Assembly: GCA_016926735.1 (NCBI GenBank)
Contig: JAFGOA010000208.1
Location: 1 to 17,905 of the forward strand
Direction: 5' to 3'
DNA from: Promethearchaeota archaeon
Lineage (GTDB): Archaea > Asgardarchaeota > Lokiarchaeia > Sigyniarchaeales > SOKP01
Length of the DNA stretch: 17,905 bases
Shown piece after piece: positions 4,100-15,635 of the stretch (positions are counted from its first letter, which is position 1; each line of letters starts with the position of its first letter). The notes under the pieces are model-generated. The model saw only the letters and a list, made by a program, of their open reading frames with translations, was not told the DNA's origin and did not search any database. Both the position numbers and the translations under genes were made by a program.

Positions 4100-5017
4100 A
4101 TGTCAGCACTAGCTTTACAACGATGTCCTCGATGTGGTAATGAAAATAGTGGAGATTCTTATGCTTGCAGCTTTTGTGGTAAGAGATTAAGAATTGAGAG
4201 AATTGAGAGAATTCCTTTCTTTAAACGTATTGAAGAAGATTGGTATAATCCTTATCCTTGGTATTTTAAAATTCTTTATCTAATTATTAATCCTTCAAGA
4301 GCATTCTGGGATATAAATCATCTCAGAAAAAAAAGCCCAGGTTTATTAATAGTATTATTTAGTTCACTTTTATATGGTCTCATGGGATTAGTCCTATTTT
4401 CAAGGTTCAATTTCATTTCTGTTGATCTAGTTTTTACCTCTGTTTATTCTTTAGGATTTTTTGTAGTTTTTTTCTTATTTGGTTTTATTTATCAAGTATT
4501 ACTGTTTTATTTTCTAATTTGGATCTATACTAAAGGTGCTAATTATTCTGTTGGATTTACACAAAAATTAGAAAAACGATTCGGTATTGGAAAACAAAAA
4601 ACAGAAACATATGAACAAACTAAATTAAGTCCCTTTAGTATATATAAAGGAGGTACTTTACTTCAAAAACAAGAAGCATTTAAATCAAAAATGATGTTAT
4701 GTGCATTCACACCATTCATGGTTTCAAATCTTATAAAATTAATTATTGTCGCTTCTATCTTCTTTCCTGAGGATCCAATATCATTAGGTAGTACTGATCT
4801 TGACGTTTTTTTTTTGAATTTGATGAAAGAACCTGTATGGAGTATACTGGATGGTTTAGATGCTATCATTCTTGTTGCTTGGGTTCCAATATTAATAACA
4901 ATTTCGATTAGAGAATTATCTAATTCCTCTACTTATAGGGTTCTTATTACGTCCTATCTCATAAGTATTGTTGTGTCGATCTTTATTTTCTTTTTAAGAC
5001 CATCTTTATTTGGTTAA
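4100..5017 (+). CDS. Zinc-ribbon plus Yip1-domain multi-pass membrane protein
   Basis: N-terminal CPRC-x10-CSFC ribbon; LIINPSRAFWDI resembles the start of Yip1 domains; about five hydrophobic segments follow, with a charged insert after TM2. Confidence 0.75.
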   Translation: MSALALQRCPRCGNENSGDSYACSFCGKRLRIERIERIPFFKRIEEDWYNPYPWYFKILYLIINPSRAFWDINHLRKKSPGLLIVLFSSLLYGLMGLVLFSRFNFISVDLVFTSVYSLGFFVVFFLFGFIYQVLLFYFLIWIYTKGANYSVGFTQKLEKRFGIGKQKTETYEQTKLSPFSIYKGGTLLQKQEAFKSKMMLCAFTPFMVSNLIKLIIVASIFFPEDPISLGSTDLDVFFLNLMKEPVWSILDGLDAIILVAWVPILITISIRELSNSSTYRVLITSYLISIVVSIFIFFLRPSLFG

Positions 5018-5070: not shown

Positions 5071-5724
5071 ATGACCTCTCAAGACAAATCAATTCATAAA
5101 TTAGAATCTGAATTATATGGAATCATAACTACATTTAATAAATTATATGAGAAATTTCAAAGGGGTATTGTAAGCAATGAATTTTTTCAAAAAACTTTTA
5201 GTAGTTTAATTTATGATTTTATAGATATTAAAATAATACTAAAATTAAATAAAATTGATTTAGTTGATATTATAAATGGTGATTATTTTATCAAAGAATA
5301 TAGTGAAATGAATTCGATTATAAAAGAATTATCACAAACAGACTTAACAGAAAAATTAATAACTATTCATGATGAAAAAAGATTAAAATACTCAAATTTA
5401 ATATCTCCATCATTGATAAATTTGCCTGGAATAACTTCTGAAATCACATCTTATTTTATTACATTAATGGATGCTATTAAATTAGATATTTCCGTTGGTG
5501 ACTCCTTTATTTTAGGGTTATTTAAGAATTTAAAGAGAGAACTCAATAAATTTCCAAGTTTTGACTATCTTAATAAGAAAATAGATAAGTTATCCATTCA
5601 TTTATCTCAAAATATTGAAACTTTTCGAGAAAATGATTTATATCGTGAGAAATTAGCTATTCATCTAAATAATATCTTTGAAGAATTTCAAGATGTACTT
5701 GATTTACAATTAGAAAAAAAATAA
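5071..5724 (+). CDS. vps28: Vps28-like ESCRT-I subunit
   Basis: N-terminal SELYGIITTFNKLYEKFQRGIVSNEFFQKTFSSLI resembles the Vps28 'AEL(Y/F)xII.T...LEKAY..D.(I/V)...EY...C..LL' segment. SEITSYFITLMDAIKLDI matches the C-terminal-domain FITxMDxLKL signature. At 217 aa it is about the size of eukaryotic Vps28. Confidence 0.85.
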   Translation: MTSQDKSIHKLESELYGIITTFNKLYEKFQRGIVSNEFFQKTFSSLIYDFIDIKIILKLNKIDLVDIINGDYFIKEYSEMNSIIKELSQTDLTEKLITIHDEKRLKYSNLISPSLINLPGITSEITSYFITLMDAIKLDISVGDSFILGLFKNLKRELNKFPSFDYLNKKIDKLSIHLSQNIETFRENDLYREKLAIHLNNIFEEFQDVLDLQLEKK

Positions 5725-7364: not shown

Positions 7365-9170
7365 TCAATTTAAACACTTTTTTACATCATTTAATATTTT
7401 CTTAGTTTCATTTAAATTTGCTATATCCTCTATTTCTTCCAGATAATTAATAGCATTTTTTAAATTAGTAATAGCTTTACCATAATCTTTTAATTTGAAA
7501 TAAGTTTCCCCTATTTCTGTTAATATTTTTCCTAATGCTACCCGATCTTCAAGTTTTTGAATAATTTGATAAGATTGTCGATAAAATTCTAAAGCTTCGG
7601 AGTATTTATTTTGATCCTTATAAATATCACCTATATTCTTAAGACGGATACTTCTACCTGATAGATTACCTACTTTTTTATCAAAATTTAATGCTTCTTC
7701 AAATTTTTCAATTGCTTTCTTAAAGTCTTTTTGTTTTGAATATACTAATCCTATATTATTAATACGAACTCCCATACCCCGATAATCACCTCTCATTTTT
7801 GCTATTTCTAAAGCTTGATTAAAATATTCTAAAGCTTTATCTAAGTTGCCTTGTTCTAAATTTATTATTCCAATATTATTTAATCTAACCGCCTTTAATG
7901 GTAGATCCTTACATCTCTCATCAATATTTAACGCATCTTCATAATATTTTAAGGCTTTATCATAGTTTTTTTGATTATAATAAAATATTCCTAATAAGTT
8001 CAGAAATTCAGATTCCATTCGTTCTGAATTCTCTTTTTTTGCTTTCTCTAATCCTTCTTCTGCACATCGTAAAAAATCCTTTATGAGTCCTAATTCTAAA
8101 TAAATATCAGACGTACATTTCCATTTTAATAATGATGGGATTTTCGTAAATTTCTCTTTTAAATATATTTCGAAAGATATAGGTGGTTCTATGCCTTTAT
8201 CTTCTAAGGAAGTTATTTTTGGTAGATTATTGTCTGGTAATAATAATTTCCATAAATTATTTTTAATAAAACTACCTGTATTTGTTTTTATTATATAGAC
8301 TTCTGCTTCTGTATTTGAACTTATTTCCGCTAAGAGACGCTCTGTCTGGGATAAATTTTTTGGAATCACAAAAGCATGTTTTGGATTAAATTCAAATATT
8401 TCTATATCATCATTTGATTGATGTTCAATCCATATAATTCTTTTAATATTATGTAATTGTCTAAGCATTGGTGCTATATCAAAATCATCTCTTCCAGAAT
8501 ATCCCATAACGATTAAGATATTATCATCACAAGTTTCTATAAATGAAGATTTCTTATATGGTTCTAGCGAAAGGAATTTATTTCCTTTTCCAAAAGCGCT
8601 CATGGTTGTAACTAATGATTCTGTGGTTTTTATATTAGTAATTACATTTCTTTTTGCACCATGAAGTTTATAAAGAGGATATTTTCCATTTTGAAAAGTA
8701 CCAAATGGATTCTTATAAGTAGTATAATCAATTTTAGTTATAACTGGAATAATATTTAAAATTTTATCATTATCTACTATTTCTTTTAAAGCATATTCGA
8801 TTAAATAATCAAAATTTGTAGTATATAGTGCATGTCCATTTTTGATAATATTAGCAAAAAAGAAATGATTTAGATTTGGTTGAGTTATTAGATCAAAATA
8901 ATTCATAAATTCTAAATTATAATCAATATAACGTTGAATAATTTCAGCAATCATTTCATACCTTAAACTTTTTATTTCAATTAAATTTTCAATTTCTTCT
9001 TCAGGAGCACATAAATATAATAAATTTGATATAAATTGAGTTGCTGGCAGAAGATTTGTTGGAAAATCTATTGAGATACCGGCTCCAACTAAAAAAACCA
9101 AATTCTTCTTTGATGGAATTAATATTTCCAAATTATTTTCATATTTTTTAATAAGTTGTTTTTCGCTCAT
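7365..9170 (-). CDS. SIR2-like (SIR2_2) NAD-binding domain fused to C-terminal TPR repeats
   Basis: VFLVGAGIS, YTTNFDYLIE, LYKLHG, VMGYSGRDDFDI. The C-terminus has about five 40-aa repeats of the type LNNIG.I....G....ALEYF.QAL.I. Confidence 0.88.
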   Translation of the reverse strand: MSEKQLIKKYENNLEILIPSKKNLVFLVGAGISIDFPTNLLPATQFISNLLYLCAPEEEIENLIEIKSLRYEMIAEIIQRYIDYNLEFMNYFDLITQPNLNHFFFANIIKNGHALYTTNFDYLIEYALKEIVDNDKILNIIPVITKIDYTTYKNPFGTFQNGKYPLYKLHGAKRNVITNIKTTESLVTTMSAFGKGNKFLSLEPYKKSSFIETCDDNILIVMGYSGRDDFDIAPMLRQLHNIKRIIWIEHQSNDDIEIFEFNPKHAFVIPKNLSQTERLLAEISSNTEAEVYIIKTNTGSFIKNNLWKLLLPDNNLPKITSLEDKGIEPPISFEIYLKEKFTKIPSLLKWKCTSDIYLELGLIKDFLRCAEEGLEKAKKENSERMESEFLNLLGIFYYNQKNYDKALKYYEDALNIDERCKDLPLKAVRLNNIGIINLEQGNLDKALEYFNQALEIAKMRGDYRGMGVRINNIGLVYSKQKDFKKAIEKFEEALNFDKKVGNLSGRSIRLKNIGDIYKDQNKYSEALEFYRQSYQIIQKLEDRVALGKILTEIGETYFKLKDYGKAITNLKNAINYLEEIEDIANLNETKKILNDVKKCLN

Positions 9171-11521: not shown

Positions 11522-14467
11522 TTACCTTCTATCATCTTTTTGACTTTTTAGCATCTCATCTATTATTTTTTTCCTTTCATTTGGATTAAGATTTGTTAAT
11601 TCTTCAATAAATTTATTTTTCTCATTGACTGGTATATTTAATTTATCTATTTTTTTTAGTTCTTTTAATTTTAAAGAAGAGATAAGATGATCTTGAATTG
11701 CAGGAGAGAATTCTAACAAATCATCAGAGTTAATAAACTGATTTATTGTTTGATCATCACTTTCAAAATTCAAATCATTTTTAGATTCTCCTAAAAATCT
11801 CTTAGAATAATGTTTTCTTCTATTAAGATAATATAAACATATTGAACAAGTGATAATAATAGATGCATTTAATATACTAAATGGTGATAAAAGATTATTT
11901 AATATTATCATAAGTATAGCTCCTAATGGATCTGGATTAGGTTCATTTCCTTCTTCAGGTGCTTTATAAATTGGATAATTATCAAGTGAATTTGCCTTTC
12001 CAGAAATGGAATAATTATCATCTCCAATCCCATCTCTATTTAAATCATATCCTATATAATCATCCCAATAATTACCTATACTTCCATTATCCCATTTATT
12101 AAAAAAACCATCATCATTCGCTTGCAATATATTATCATAAAATTCGTTAAGAAAAATAAGATTATATCCAGAGTCTTCTAATAAAGTAATTCCAATATAA
12201 TTAAGAGTGAAGTTATTATTGCTAATGGTTGAATTAATACAATTATCTAAAGAAATACCATAGATATTAGTGCTAATAATATTTGAATCTATTGTAATGT
12301 TAAACGTGTTTAATCCTAAGAAAATCGAGAATTGATTGGATTTAAATATATTATTATTGATATAAATATTATAAATTTGAGAACTAGTATTTGTATTACT
12401 TATGTATATCCCATAATATGGATTGTTTTCTATTATATTGCTATTAATATCTATTTCTTTCGAATCTATAATCTTAATTCCATATATTAAATTCTCTGAG
12501 ATTATATTATTTTCTAATAATAAGTTATAAACAGAATTAATATTAATCCCACAATTTAAATCAGAAACTATGTTATTATCTAAAATTATATTCTCACTAA
12601 AACTTATATTAATTCCACATAAAGTATTTTGATTTATGCTATTGTTTATAATATCTATTTTTATCGAATTCTTTATATTGATTCCTATTTGATGATTATT
12701 TATAATTGTGTTATTGATTATATCGCTATTATTGCATAAATCACTAAAATATATACCATGAATTATATTATTGAAGATAGTATTATTCTTGATCATAATG
12801 CAATTATCTTCTGATAGATAGATCCCACTATTGTTATTTTCACTAATCTGATTTTCTTCAATAGAAAGATTAAAACTTTTTTCTATTGTTAATCCATTAT
12901 CATAATTAGCAGAAATGCAATTATTGGTGATATAACTATTATTTGTATTGTAAATAAAGAAACTACTAATAGTATTGTTAGTAGCGATGTTATTATTTAG
13001 AGTTATATTATTTGAATAAAAAATTAATACACTAAAAGATGAATTTGAAATTTTAAAATTTGAAACAATTGAATGATTACAATTAATAAGTATAATCTGC
13101 CCAGGAGAGTCGGGATTTGTAAAATTATTAGAATTTAAATATGAGGAATTTACAAAATAATAAATAGGTTTGTCATTTACTTTATTAGTTGTATCAATTT
13201 TATAAGAAGTAAGGTCTACTAATGAATTTTCTTTATTTAAAAAGATCCCACACATTTTTAATTCATTGTTTCTTATTACTTGATTTTCTCCATTTCCATT
13301 AAAATAAATTCCAAACTCGCATCTATCTAAAGTATTATCAGAATAATTACCATTGTTGGTGTAAGGATCTATAAATAATCCATATTTACATGAAATTATT
13401 GTATTATTAGTAAGAGTTGAATTATTTCCATAATCAATAATCCCACAATAATTAGAATTTTCTATAATATTATCTTTCACTAAAGATTTATTAACTCTAT
13501 ATGTGATTTCAATCCCTTTATTTTGAATATCACTAAAGATATTATCATCTATTGTATTATTTATTGATTCTGTATCGAGTTTATAACCAATTGTATATGG
13601 ATATATTATAATTCCTCCTATACTACAATTAGAAAACTCATTTTTTTTGATAATATTATTATGACCACCAAAATTAATACCATATTCCAATGTGTTTAAC
13701 TTATTTTCTGAAATTGTTGTATTTTGTGTATTACCATAAATACCATGACCAACTTCACTATTGCTTATATTATTTTTAAATATAATTGAATTATTACTAT
13801 AGAAAAGGTCGATTCCATGTATTCTATTAGAATTAATAATATTTTCTTCAATTGTACAATTTTTACTATAAAATAATTCAATTCCATTCCTAATATTATC
13901 ATTAACGTTATTTTGAATTATTGTACAATTTTGACTATTTTTTAAAATAATTCCTACACCTCCATTATTAGAACAATTATTTTCTATTATTTTTCCATTA
14001 CTTACATTTTCTAATAGAATTCCCCCTACATAATCAGGATATTCTAAATCAAATTTCGAATTTGACAAATCGCAATTTTTAATGATAAAACTTTTATTAG
14101 AATTACATATAGTAATTGGAGTGTTTTCATAATTTCCATTTATAGATACATTTTCAATAATAAATGGATCATTCCATGTACCAAAACCACTACACCAATC
14201 TTCATTTACTGCCCATGTCCAGTTATGTGCACCTACTCCACTAGCACTATCATTAATAAAAATAGGTGTAGAACTGAGATCCCAATGATTTGAATTTTTA
14301 AATATATCCTTAGGATTTTGAACTATATCATTATTAGGAATGTGATGCTGTATTGAAATTGATGATATGAAAAAAAAATTGATAATAAAACTTATCAAAA
14401 ATATTGAAATTAGTGCTATAGTTTTTTTATTGAAATTTTTTCCTAAATTCTGTTTTGAGCTCTTCAT
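11522..14467 (-). CDS. Membrane-anchored right-handed parallel beta-helix (NosD/CASH-like) surface protein with a cytoplasmic C-terminal tail
   Basis: N-terminal hydrophobic segment (TIALISIFLISFIINFFFISSI); many GI.L..S.N..I..N.I..N repeats; GNYWDDY.GYDLNRDGIGD cap motif; Pro-rich linker; C-terminal TM followed by RRKH and a charged tail of about 95 aa. Confidence 0.88.
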   Translation of the reverse strand: MKSSKQNLGKNFNKKTIALISIFLISFIINFFFISSISIQHHIPNNDIVQNPKDIFKNSNHWDLSSTPIFINDSASGVGAHNWTWAVNEDWCSGFGTWNDPFIIENVSINGNYENTPITICNSNKSFIIKNCDLSNSKFDLEYPDYVGGILLENVSNGKIIENNCSNNGGVGIILKNSQNCTIIQNNVNDNIRNGIELFYSKNCTIEENIINSNRIHGIDLFYSNNSIIFKNNISNSEVGHGIYGNTQNTTISENKLNTLEYGINFGGHNNIIKKNEFSNCSIGGIIIYPYTIGYKLDTESINNTIDDNIFSDIQNKGIEITYRVNKSLVKDNIIENSNYCGIIDYGNNSTLTNNTIISCKYGLFIDPYTNNGNYSDNTLDRCEFGIYFNGNGENQVIRNNELKMCGIFLNKENSLVDLTSYKIDTTNKVNDKPIYYFVNSSYLNSNNFTNPDSPGQIILINCNHSIVSNFKISNSSFSVLIFYSNNITLNNNIATNNTISSFFIYNTNNSYITNNCISANYDNGLTIEKSFNLSIEENQISENNNSGIYLSEDNCIMIKNNTIFNNIIHGIYFSDLCNNSDIINNTIINNHQIGINIKNSIKIDIINNSINQNTLCGINISFSENIILDNNIVSDLNCGININSVYNLLLENNIISENLIYGIKIIDSKEIDINSNIIENNPYYGIYISNTNTSSQIYNIYINNNIFKSNQFSIFLGLNTFNITIDSNIISTNIYGISLDNCINSTISNNNFTLNYIGITLLEDSGYNLIFLNEFYDNILQANDDGFFNKWDNGSIGNYWDDYIGYDLNRDGIGDDNYSISGKANSLDNYPIYKAPEEGNEPNPDPLGAILMIILNNLLSPFSILNASIIITCSICLYYLNRRKHYSKRFLGESKNDLNFESDDQTINQFINSDDLLEFSPAIQDHLISSLKLKELKKIDKLNIPVNEKNKFIEELTNLNPNERKKIIDEMLKSQKDDRR

Positions 14468-14679
14468 TTGTAAAATATAAAATATATTATATCTTCATTA
14501 ATATCATAATTTTTTATATATTCAATTATCTTTTTGAACTAACAACTATAAATATGCATAAAGTAATACTTTTATCAGAAATAATTTGGACAAAAAATGA
14601 AATCTTCAAAAATCTAAAACTTTTATCATTAAAAATTATTTCTTCTTTTTGGTATCTCATTTTTCTCAATTTTTATTAT

Positions 14680-15357
14680 TTATTCCTTTTTATTATGCAT
14701 AATCTCATTGTATCTCTCATAATCTAAAATATATTTTTTTCTTTTTTTTTCATTTATTAATTCTATAATTTTAAGTTGTCTTAATTTTTCTAAATTTTTC
14801 TTAACAGTATTAAAATGCATTGAAAGTAAATTAGATATATCTGATGGACTTAAGGGATCTTCCTTTTGTTTAAGTATTTCTAATATAGATTTTACTTTAT
14901 CATTTGCAAAACAATAGTAAATAAGATCATATTTTGGATCTGAGTTATGTGAAAAAATGACTTTATGTTTTTCTATCTCAATAATTCTTATGAATTTGAA
15001 TTTTCTTAAAAAATCTAAATGCCAAATTATTTGGTTTGCCCCCACATCAAAGAATTTTCTTATATCATAATTAGTTGATCCCGGATTATTTAAAATATAT
15101 TCATATATTTTCCGTCTAAATGGATTATCTAAAACATTATCTTTCGCAATTCTTGATCCAATGATGATCTTTCTTTTTTTAATTAAATCTTTAACAATCC
15201 TTATAATCTTAGCTTTACTAAAATTCTGATTTCCTTTTAATTGATAGTTTAGGTAATGAGCTAAATCAACTATTCTTGAGATCGGTTTTCTTTTGATATA
15301 TTGCTTTATTAATTTATATACAATATTTTCATCCTTTTTTGAATAATAGATACTCAT
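14680..15357 (-). CDS. Multi-winged-helix (ArsR-like) transcriptional regulator
   Basis: VLDNPFRRKIYEYILNNPG...IRKFFDVGANQIIWHLDFLRKFKFI and ILEILKQKEDPLSPSDISNLLSMHFNTVKKNLEKLRQLKII are two clear wHTH units; the N-terminal 60 aa may be a third. Confidence 0.82.
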   Translation of the reverse strand: MSIYYSKKDENIVYKLIKQYIKRKPISRIVDLAHYLNYQLKGNQNFSKAKIIRIVKDLIKKRKIIIGSRIAKDNVLDNPFRRKIYEYILNNPGSTNYDIRKFFDVGANQIIWHLDFLRKFKFIRIIEIEKHKVIFSHNSDPKYDLIYYCFANDKVKSILEILKQKEDPLSPSDISNLLSMHFNTVKKNLEKLRQLKIIELINEKKRKKYILDYERYNEIMHNKKE

Positions 15358-15635
15358 ATGATTTCTGGAATTTTAGTTAGAGTTTAGTATATTTAAACAT
15401 AATCTCTTTGATTAGAGATTATAAAATAATTTTATATTTATCATTATATAATTTATTTTTTTTCTATATAAATTTCTAATAATGTATAAAATGTCAGTAA
15501 TTTAAGGTTTTATGGAATTTTAAAGAAGAGTTGCTATAACATTAAAAGAAAAAAAAATCAAATTAATAAATATTTATATCTGTACTATTGATTTTATGGA
15601 AAAAAGATTTATATATATAAAAAATAACAAAATCA

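Follow-up and report, generated by a model that had tools for sequence, protein, structure and literature searches.

A conserved receptor-tail domain and its adjacent triple winged-helix protein as a candidate membrane-coupled regulatory module of Lokiarchaeia

To our knowledge, little is understood of how Asgard archaea sense their surroundings, and the literature has concentrated on two-component systems and eukaryote-like GTPases. Two neighboring genes on contig JAFGOA010000208.1 of a Promethearchaeota archaeon raise the question of whether a surface receptor could be tied to a transcription regulator with no kinase involved. We analyzed the entire 17,905-bp contig (C30; the window), which belongs to a metagenome-assembled genome of 3.88 Mb with 26% GC, 238 contigs and an estimated contamination of 4.8%. 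A gene for a 225-amino-acid (aa) protein with three winged-helix (WH) units, P0002, lies upstream of a gene on the same strand for a 981-aa type I membrane protein, P0001, with a gap of 212 bp. A first-pass annotation had proposed that the cytoplasmic tail of this membrane protein sequesters or releases the regulator; both open reading frames (ORFs) and the gap lie where it had placed them, and the peptide that it cited from the end of the tail is found within P0001. Our preferred reading, to which we assign a probability of roughly 0.55, is that the pair represents a two-gene module that recurs across Lokiarchaeia, in which the tail docks the triple-WH protein and provides kinase-free coupling of receptor to promoter. 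The features on which the argument draws are these.

14680–15357, minus strand: P0002 gene (ORF, Pfam HTH_24/HTH_20, AlphaFold2 (AF2) model, PDB profile matches)
15148–15357, minus strand: WH1, ~residues 1–70 of P0002 (unit of the AF2 model)
14938–15147, minus strand: WH2, ~residues 71–140 of P0002 (unit of the AF2 model)
14683–14937, minus strand: WH3, ~residues 141–225 of P0002 (unit of the AF2 model)
15358–15635, minus strand: region upstream of the P0002 gene (sequence)
14468–14679, minus strand: intergenic spacer (sequence and alignment with orthologous spacers)
11522–14467, minus strand: P0001 gene (ORF)
14345–14428, minus strand: N-terminal signal anchor or signal peptide of P0001, ~residues 14–41 (hydropathy)
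11930–14344, minus strand: P0001 ectodomain, a NosD/CASH-type right-handed parallel beta-helix, ~residues 42–846 (PF05048, PF13229)
11825–11929, minus strand: C-terminal transmembrane (TM) segment of P0001, ~residues 847–881 (hydropathy and sequence)
11534–11758, minus strand: conserved tail domain of P0001, residues 904–978 (profile matches, alignments, AF2)

Is the tail of P0001 a domain in its own right? Its conserved core spans ~75 aa and carries the motif ID.L....EK..FI.E(L/M)..L.P.ER..I..EML, with position-specific conservation at F68, E71, L75, E79 and R80 of the alignment. When the ORFs of the same genome were queried with the last 70–96 aa of P0001 and the search was iterated, the resulting profile retrieved 12 proteins, set apart from the background by an E-value gap between 1e-9 and 0.16; the P0001 tail itself scores E = 1.1e-21. 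Against 1.84 billion representative proteins the profile matched 327 clusters at E ≤ 1e-3, with E-values reaching 1e-44. The AF2 model of the tail is helical, and its last three helices have predicted local distance difference test (pLDDT) scores of 87–94. Known families offered no counterpart: Pfam returned scattered single-member noise at E ≤ 10, the profile found nothing under E = 0.44 among PDB sequences, and Foldseek found nothing under E = 4 for the AF2 model.

The domain is characteristic of one archaeal class. Across 400 genomes of the phylum it is present in 133 of the 134 that belong to the window's family and also in neighboring families of the order and class, and it is found almost nowhere else. 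Copy number ranges from 7 to 13 matches per genome in the window's genus and is mostly 1–7 in other Lokiarchaeial genomes. The conservation that the first-pass annotation had left to be checked is therefore class-wide in Lokiarchaeia. Three small genomes of another class (G300, G302 and G303; family f27, 1.3–1.4 Mb) gave weak tail matches (E 3e-8 to 1e-5), with no triple-WH family member at E ≤ 1e-25.

The position of the domain in its host proteins is equally regular. It ends ≤20 aa from the C-terminus in 158 of 162 representatives examined, most of which have one or two hydrophobic segments in a type I pattern. As the first-pass annotation had anticipated, the ectodomains vary: in a survey of 38 long tail representatives plus the own-genome copies, about one-third are beta-helices, and the others include beta-propellers of several kinds, Big_7, sialidase-type carbohydrate-binding modules (CBMs), lectin-like LamG, glycoside hydrolase family 9 (GH9) with fn3, the solute-binding protein (SBP) family SBP_bac_5 and PKD.

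Several variants of this layout occur. Tail-only mini-proteins of 82–150 aa that lack a TM segment and have no adjacent gene of the P0002 family occur in the window's genome, at C184:385-675 (L016) and C222:41132-41380 (L019), and account for roughly 37 of the 162 representatives. Such mini-proteins may be soluble competitors or decoys, and a portion of those from metagenomes could be fragments. Some receptors have two tandem C-terminal tail domains (for example, C19:21081-23201 (L017), P0009–P0011 and P0025–P0033), with 15 instances among the 162 representatives. One of the four non-terminal tails belongs to the metagenomic protein P0164 (293 aa), in which a TM segment and the tail are followed by ~110 extra C-terminal residues that, by eye, look like a small beta-grasp-type domain.

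If the tail has a partner, the neighboring winged helix-turn-helix (wHTH) protein is the obvious candidate. The window's genome encodes 28 members of the P0002 family (P0002 matches the wHTH profile at E = 1.7e-71 over its full length). Of the 12 tail genes, nine have a family member on the same strand at a distance of −7 to +213 bp, for which the chance expectation is ~1e-14. Among 30 hits in other genomes, each represented by its best tail locus, 27 adjoin a full-length wHTH-family gene, and at a further locus (L064) such a gene is found upstream in a larger region, giving 28 of 30; of the remaining two, one is cut by a contig end and one has no wHTH gene nearby. At E ≤ 1e-25, the wHTH family also has a range across genomes nearly equal to that of the tail. 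The adjacency is thus near-obligate, and the first-pass suggestion that tail-bearing genes co-occur with this wHTH family is borne out within the genome and across Lokiarchaeia.

Three congeneric genomes keep the order seen in the window, with a wHTH gene, a spacer of ~215 bp and a beta-helix–tail gene. The genes on either side, P0003 (PEMT/ICMT-like) and P0004 (an S9 peptidase), do not accompany the pair there, so the conserved unit is exactly P0002–P0001; both flanking genes were considered as parts of the module and rejected on this ground. More widely, the module can be defined as a membrane protein with a ~75-aa C-terminal domain bearing EK..FI.E(L/M)..L.P.ER, next to a co-oriented triple-WH gene that includes WH1; the window pair has the motif, the membrane protein and the co-oriented, WH1-bearing neighbor. 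The genes come in two orders, each with its own subfamily of both proteins. The wHTH gene lies upstream for the beta-helix receptors on C30 (the window), C41 and C207 and at L064, and downstream at most other tail loci.

At two of the own-genome loci with the upstream order (C41:22375-23582 and C207:11253-12507; L055 and L056 in genome G160), two wHTH genes precede the beta-helix receptor, one full-length and one short (135–190 aa, WH1 and WH2 only), whereas the window locus has the full-length gene only. A remnant of the short gene was sought in the 212-bp spacer and rejected, as the single 19-aa tblastn match was unconvincing.

These results also bear on the alternative that there is no real feature here and that low-complexity AT-rich coding sequence or an assembly artifact created the appearance of one. 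The low GC content, the Asn/Lys/Ile-rich proteins and the fragmented, slightly contaminated assembly would all invite that suspicion. E-values of the order found among 1.84 billion proteins, position-specific conservation and the recurrence of the pair in well over 100 independent assemblies refute it, and we give it next to no weight.

Does adjacency reflect a working relationship between the two proteins? One line of evidence comes from natural fusions, which the first-pass annotation had named as a possible finding and which occur in two species. P0024, a Lokiarchaeota protein of 1073 aa in NCBI, has a beta-helix, a TM segment at 690–712, the tail at 765–836 and a triple wHTH at 856–1061. 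In another genus, L066:1198-4152 (985 aa) has a signal anchor, a beta-helix with PKD, a TM segment, the tail at 683–753 and a wHTH array at 770–977. The two fusions are non-identical, and in both a linker of ~17–20 aa joins tail to wHTH. Two lineages have retained such a fusion, which is good evidence for joint action of the tail and the wHTH array.

The unfused pairs tell a similar story of shared history. Pairwise identities among tails and among their partners are strongly correlated (Mantel r = 0.87, a value reached in 0 of 2,000 permutations), and the tail–wHTH pairs duplicate and diverge as units.

A further line of evidence concerns WH1. All 11 of the tail-adjacent wHTH genes in the window's genome encode it, whereas nine family members without WH1, which combine WH2 and WH3 with long N-terminal regions that have no Pfam match, are never tail-adjacent. 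The remaining WH1-bearing members are likewise membrane-associated: seven lie beside a ~430-aa polytopic membrane protein, and one, of a type that we name after its contig, C138, is itself anchored by TM segments. WH1 therefore tracks membrane association, which suggests that the wHTH family as a whole works at the membrane. The C138-type protein (C138:3373-4503; L077) has two N-terminal TM segments, a short outside loop and a full triple wHTH, and the subfamily to which it belongs (332–380 aa) also occurs in other genomes (L078–L081) and spans at least three genera. The C138 protein (376 aa) was first considered as a longin fusion, a reading rejected because its N-terminus consists of two TM segments. 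Judged by their architecture, these anchored proteins show that the family should be able to work while fixed to the membrane, and, together with the fused forms, they indicate that simple release is not required.

The seven wHTH proteins with polytopic neighbors form a triple-wHTH subfamily of 235–267 aa (C192, C153 (27868-29869), C41 (43873-45937), C69, C97 (17066-19080; L075), C228 (6591-8650; L076) and C95). Their ~430-aa neighbors have 5–6 TM segments and a ~200-aa cytoplasmic part, are 36% identical among paralogs, have no Pfam match and end in a conserved DL.K.P.S.S.(D/E)FF.LY(D/E)ELK motif. By sequence, this polytopic protein appears to be a second, unrelated class of membrane partner for the wHTH family.

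An alternative that requires no contact between the two proteins has to be weighed at this point. Regulators are often encoded beside their own targets, and the wHTH protein could simply control the neighboring surface-protein gene, with the tail serving anchoring, oligomerization or sorting. The 212-bp spacer in the window, with its promoter-like conserved blocks, would suit such a regulator, as would the receptor paralog that has a tail and no wHTH neighbor and the tail-only mini-proteins on C184 and C222 that lie away from wHTH genes. However, the association follows the tail and not the ectodomain, as unrelated ectodomains that carry the tail all have a wHTH neighbor, and tail and wHTH are fused across a short linker in two genera. 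Relatives that are TM-anchored or paired with a membrane protein are also not what a plain cytosolic autoregulator would need. Because of the fusions and the tracking of the tail, we consider this explanation quite improbable, and less likely than the scaffold alternative discussed below.

What would the docked protein do? The AF2 model of P0002 (mean pLDDT 94.9) contains an N-terminal three-helix unit, WH1, followed by two canonical winged helices, WH2 and WH3, each with an H-H-H-E-E order of elements. The first-pass annotation had counted two or three wHTH units; three are modeled, of which two are canonical winged helices and WH1 is a three-helix unit. Pfam detects the third unit only, with HTH_24/HTH_20 on residues 150–215 and HTH_24 (PF13412) at 28.2 bits against a cutoff of 21.9, and this score and the AF2 fold place P0002 in the winged helix-turn-helix superfamily. 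Pfam and NCBIfam scans returned only wHTH families, in agreement with the earlier view that the protein has no sensor or ligand domain. Related protein clusters carry HTH_24, HTH_5 and HVO_0163_N, and among PDB chains the family profile picks out DNA-binding wHTH proteins (5duk at 1.5e-8, AF2008, TFE and ArsR/HlyU/CzrA). Single domains of P0002 superpose on ArsR/SmtB with TM-scores of 0.7–0.8 relative to the target, and the score of the whole protein against the ArsR/SmtB metalloregulator model NF033788 (31 bits, cutoff 55) leaves it outside that family. Net charge is +22 for P0002 and averages +14.8 in the family. In the 'recognition' helices, W112, H113, H181 and K187 are invariant across paralogs, and the residues that open the WH2 recognition helix vary between subfamilies and are kept among orthologs. 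We infer that WH2 and WH3 bind DNA, and a transcriptional output seems most likely because of the DNA-binding wHTH profile matches, the basic charge and the subfamily-specific WH2 positions.

Tandem-WH proteins can also act as protein scaffolds, as in ESCRT-II, ScpB and NPRL2/3, and P0002 could instead be an adaptor that binds the tail and links it to sorting, turnover, cytoskeleton or GTPase machinery, with no DNA output. The best Foldseek whole-chain matches (Rpc34, the SelB C-terminus, UFL1/DDRGK1, Vps22 and ScpB) do lean toward tandem-WH scaffolds and count against a promoter-binding role, although their TM-scores are low, at 0.24–0.29, and at that level do not place P0002 among the ESCRT-II Vps22/25/36, ScpB or NPRL2/3 proteins. 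The constant membrane association of the family, including its covalently anchored forms, would also be natural for a scaffold, and the invariant W112, H113, H181 and K187 could mark a common protein interface. Set against this, at profile level WH2 and WH3 hit DNA-binding wHTH regulators, with no scaffold family among the matches: EAP30, ScpB and NPR2 Pfam matches are absent from P0002, and no such chain appeared in the PDB profile search. The strongly positive net charge and a WH2 recognition helix whose start differs by subfamily, as expected for diverging DNA specificities, likewise favor DNA, and the orthologous loci that we inspected show no GTPase, longin or ESCRT gene linked to the pair. 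We regard an adaptor role as unlikely, while taking it more seriously than any other alternative.

The receptor side of the module is clearer in outline. P0001 begins with basic residues and a ~20-aa hydrophobic segment (within ~residues 14–41), continues into an ectodomain of ~800 aa built of NosD/Beta_helix repeats (PF05048 188 bits, PF13229 182 bits) and then has a hydrophobic stretch (847–881), a basic NRRKHYSKRF and a further ~100 residues. The type I arrangement with a long cytoplasmic tail that was first proposed for it holds up in each of these parts. The NosD/CASH-like beta-helix fold usually binds or cuts polysaccharides. P0001 has the generic NosD/Beta_helix repeat fold, and it is not a true NosD because its TIGR04247 score of 135.7 bits falls far under the NCBIfam cutoff of 300; there are no nos genes within the window. 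All 38 N-X-S/T sequons counted lie in residues 42–846 and none in the tail, which fits a division between outside and inside, and the ectodomain carries 18 Cys. By the positive-inside rule, the tail is predicted to be cytoplasmic.

Putting the two halves together, the reading that we prefer would run as follows. The type I surface protein would sense an extracellular cue through an exchangeable ectodomain, here a beta-helix, and its ~75-aa cytoplasmic tail would be the docking site for the basic triple-WH protein encoded next to it, probably through WH1/WH2. Docking would keep the triple-WH protein at the membrane and tie its activity to the state of the receptor, and the output would most likely be promoter binding, with no kinase involved. 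The regulator could bind DNA at the membrane or be freed by proteolysis. Sequestration and release, as first suggested, is one possible mode only, open to split pairs. A wider version, in which Lokiarchaeia possess a dedicated kinase-free signaling family with dozens of receptors, each docking its cognate triple-WH factor and changing or freeing it upon ligand binding, is more tentative, and we would put it at somewhat less than even odds.

The intergenic regions would be the natural places to look for the sites of such a regulator. The 212-bp spacer aligns with its orthologs in the congeners G159, G160 and G158 at 78% mean column identity, and its conserved blocks include a TGAA-N3-TTCA palindrome followed by a T-run and a ATATTTATA box ~80 nt before the receptor ATG, which are candidates for a terminator and for a promoter/operator, respectively. 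Upstream of P0002, a perfect 9-bp inverted repeat, ATAATCTCT-N6-AGAGATTAT, occurs at 15399–15422, 42–65 nt before the ATG; it is a weak operator candidate, as its sequence is not conserved in G160 or G158 and AT-rich DNA yields many chance repeats.

Several observations weigh against the docking and promoter-coupling reading. The gap of 212 bp with its possible terminator means that the two genes may be separate transcripts, where other loci mostly have gaps of 20–60 bp or overlapping genes. No conserved operator could be defined, and the two intergenic regions share nothing beyond AT-rich chance repeats. The case for DNA binding draws on the families that P0002 resembles and on its charge, and a high Lys content is usual for proteins at 26% GC. 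Tandem duplication of the gene pair would give co-diversification with no protein contact. Finally, the receptor paralog closest to P0001 (1005 aa, on C129, with a tail 54% identical) has no adjacent wHTH gene, and it may rely on a partner encoded elsewhere. At this locus (C129:363-3380; L012) and at its counterpart in another genome (G160:C110; L058), a gene for a secreted protein with a C-terminal anchor lies upstream in place of the wHTH gene.

How does the module compare with systems already described? By analogy, the functionally closest appears to be RsgI/SigI, the anti-sigma/sigma pairs with which Clostridium (Acetivibrio) thermocellum and Bacillus sense polysaccharides (PMC6582324, PMC10328401, PMC4711584). 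Both have many paralogous pairs per genome, a single-pass sensor with a small cytoplasmic domain, an adjacent cognate transcription protein and exchangeable carbohydrate-type ectodomains (CBM, GH and PA14 there; beta-helix, GH9, CBM, LamG and SBP here), and the regulator gene precedes the sensor gene there, just as it does in the window. The parts themselves differ throughout. Pfam and NCBIfam give only wHTH families on P0002, with no Sigma70_r2/r4, and the partner is a triple winged-helix protein whose binding to the tail is predicted; P0001 has no zf-HC2 or RsgI_N, and its N-terminus is a signal anchor with the cytoplasmic domain at the other end. The topology is therefore inverted, with a C-terminal docking domain on a type I protein here and an N-terminal one on a type II protein there, and we saw no SEAL-like autoproteolytic domain or RseP link. 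On every defining feature tested, the pair falls outside both the extracytoplasmic function (ECF) sigma/anti-sigma and the SigI/RsgI systems. We know of no sigma factors in archaea. The comparison with anti-sigma/ECF pairs drawn in the first-pass annotation consequently holds as an analogy, and no sigma or anti-sigma domain is present.

A second precedent is the E. coli Mlc–PtsG system, in which a transporter's cytoplasmic domain keeps a soluble HTH repressor at the membrane and the state of the transporter governs whether the repressor is available to DNA. It differs in that phosphorylation controls the partner, an EIIB domain of the phosphotransferase system (PTS), that its proteins are not homologous to those of the module and that the genes are not a dedicated, multiplied pair.

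Transmembrane transcription regulators such as ToxR, CadC and the archaeal ArnR type are defined as proteins that combine a DNA-binding domain with one or more TM segments (PMC10269533). They resemble the module in placing a DNA-binding-type domain at the cytoplasmic membrane and coupling it to an extracytoplasmic domain without phosphotransfer. The window pair lies outside the definition, since P0002 has no hydrophobic segment and P0001 no HTH: sensor and wHTH are separate polypeptides, presumably joined through the tail. P0024, L066:1198-4152 and the C138 type do fit the definition of that survey, which makes no mention of Asgard archaea (PMC10269533). The fused forms differ from the regulators in the survey in having the DNA-binding module C-terminal to the TM segment and in having three WH units. 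Relative to ArsR/SmtB and HVO_0163-type proteins (PF12840, PF13412, PF01022, PF24266), P0002 shares the HTH with a beta-wing and an 'xHL..L' recognition-helix signature in WH2/WH3, and it differs in having three units per chain, with the extra N-terminal WH1 in membrane-associated subfamilies only, and in lacking a sensor or ligand domain.

We found no paper describing the tail domain or its pairing with wHTH proteins, within a literature coverage that was incomplete. It is plausible that the module regulates transcription in a membrane-coupled manner, with an undescribed domain at its center. Of the first-pass interpretation as a whole, tail conservation and the co-occurrence and fusion with wHTH proteins stand as observations, and the mechanism is an extrapolation from them.

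If the proposal is correct, it would reveal a widespread, class-specific signaling route assembled from an undescribed domain and a winged-helix protein with the unusual number of three units. Signaling from a receptor tail to a transcription factor, a logic known otherwise from eukaryotes, would then have expanded in their closest prokaryotic relatives. The ectodomain types suggest sensing of sediment polysaccharides and solutes, which would bear on the ecology and cultivation of these archaea. The module is also experimentally tractable, since the tail (~100 aa) and the triple-WH protein (225 aa) are small soluble pieces and the two intergenic regions are defined. The order has two cultured relatives, and the genomes of 'Ca. 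Prometheoarchaeum' and 'Ca. Lokiarchaeum', known from enrichments, each contain at least one match to the tail. What the window pair itself contributes is the subfamily with a beta-helix receptor, an upstream wHTH gene and a conserved spacer, together with a second fusion, the correlation of WH1 with the membrane and a second partner class.

The rest of the window holds genes of separate interest. Upstream of the pair, P0003 (15636–16661, minus strand) is a membrane protein of polytopic type whose methyltransferase-like matches (PEMT/ICMT/DUF1295) are weak, and downstream P0004 (9318–11252, minus strand) is an S9 prolyl-oligopeptidase-family protein. A Vps28 (ESCRT-I) homolog lies at 5071–5724 on the plus strand (PF03997, 36.8 bits); Vps28 is an Asgard eukaryotic signature protein, and its presence supports the Asgard origin of the contig, as do the organism names under which homologs are recorded, which point to Lokiarchaeota/Promethearchaeota. 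The product of the gene beside it (4100–5017) is a membrane protein that carries a zinc ribbon and matches the Yip1 domain weakly (23.6 bits, cutoff 28.6). A 601-aa protein encoded at 7365–9170 on the minus strand combines an N-terminal SIR2_2 domain with C-terminal tetratricopeptide (TPR) repeats, an architecture seen in candidate defense or NAD-depleting systems. At the contig end (17202–17857, minus strand), genes for a HepT-like RNase and an MNT-type nucleotidyltransferase overlap by 4 nt and form a HEPN/MNT toxin–antitoxin pair.

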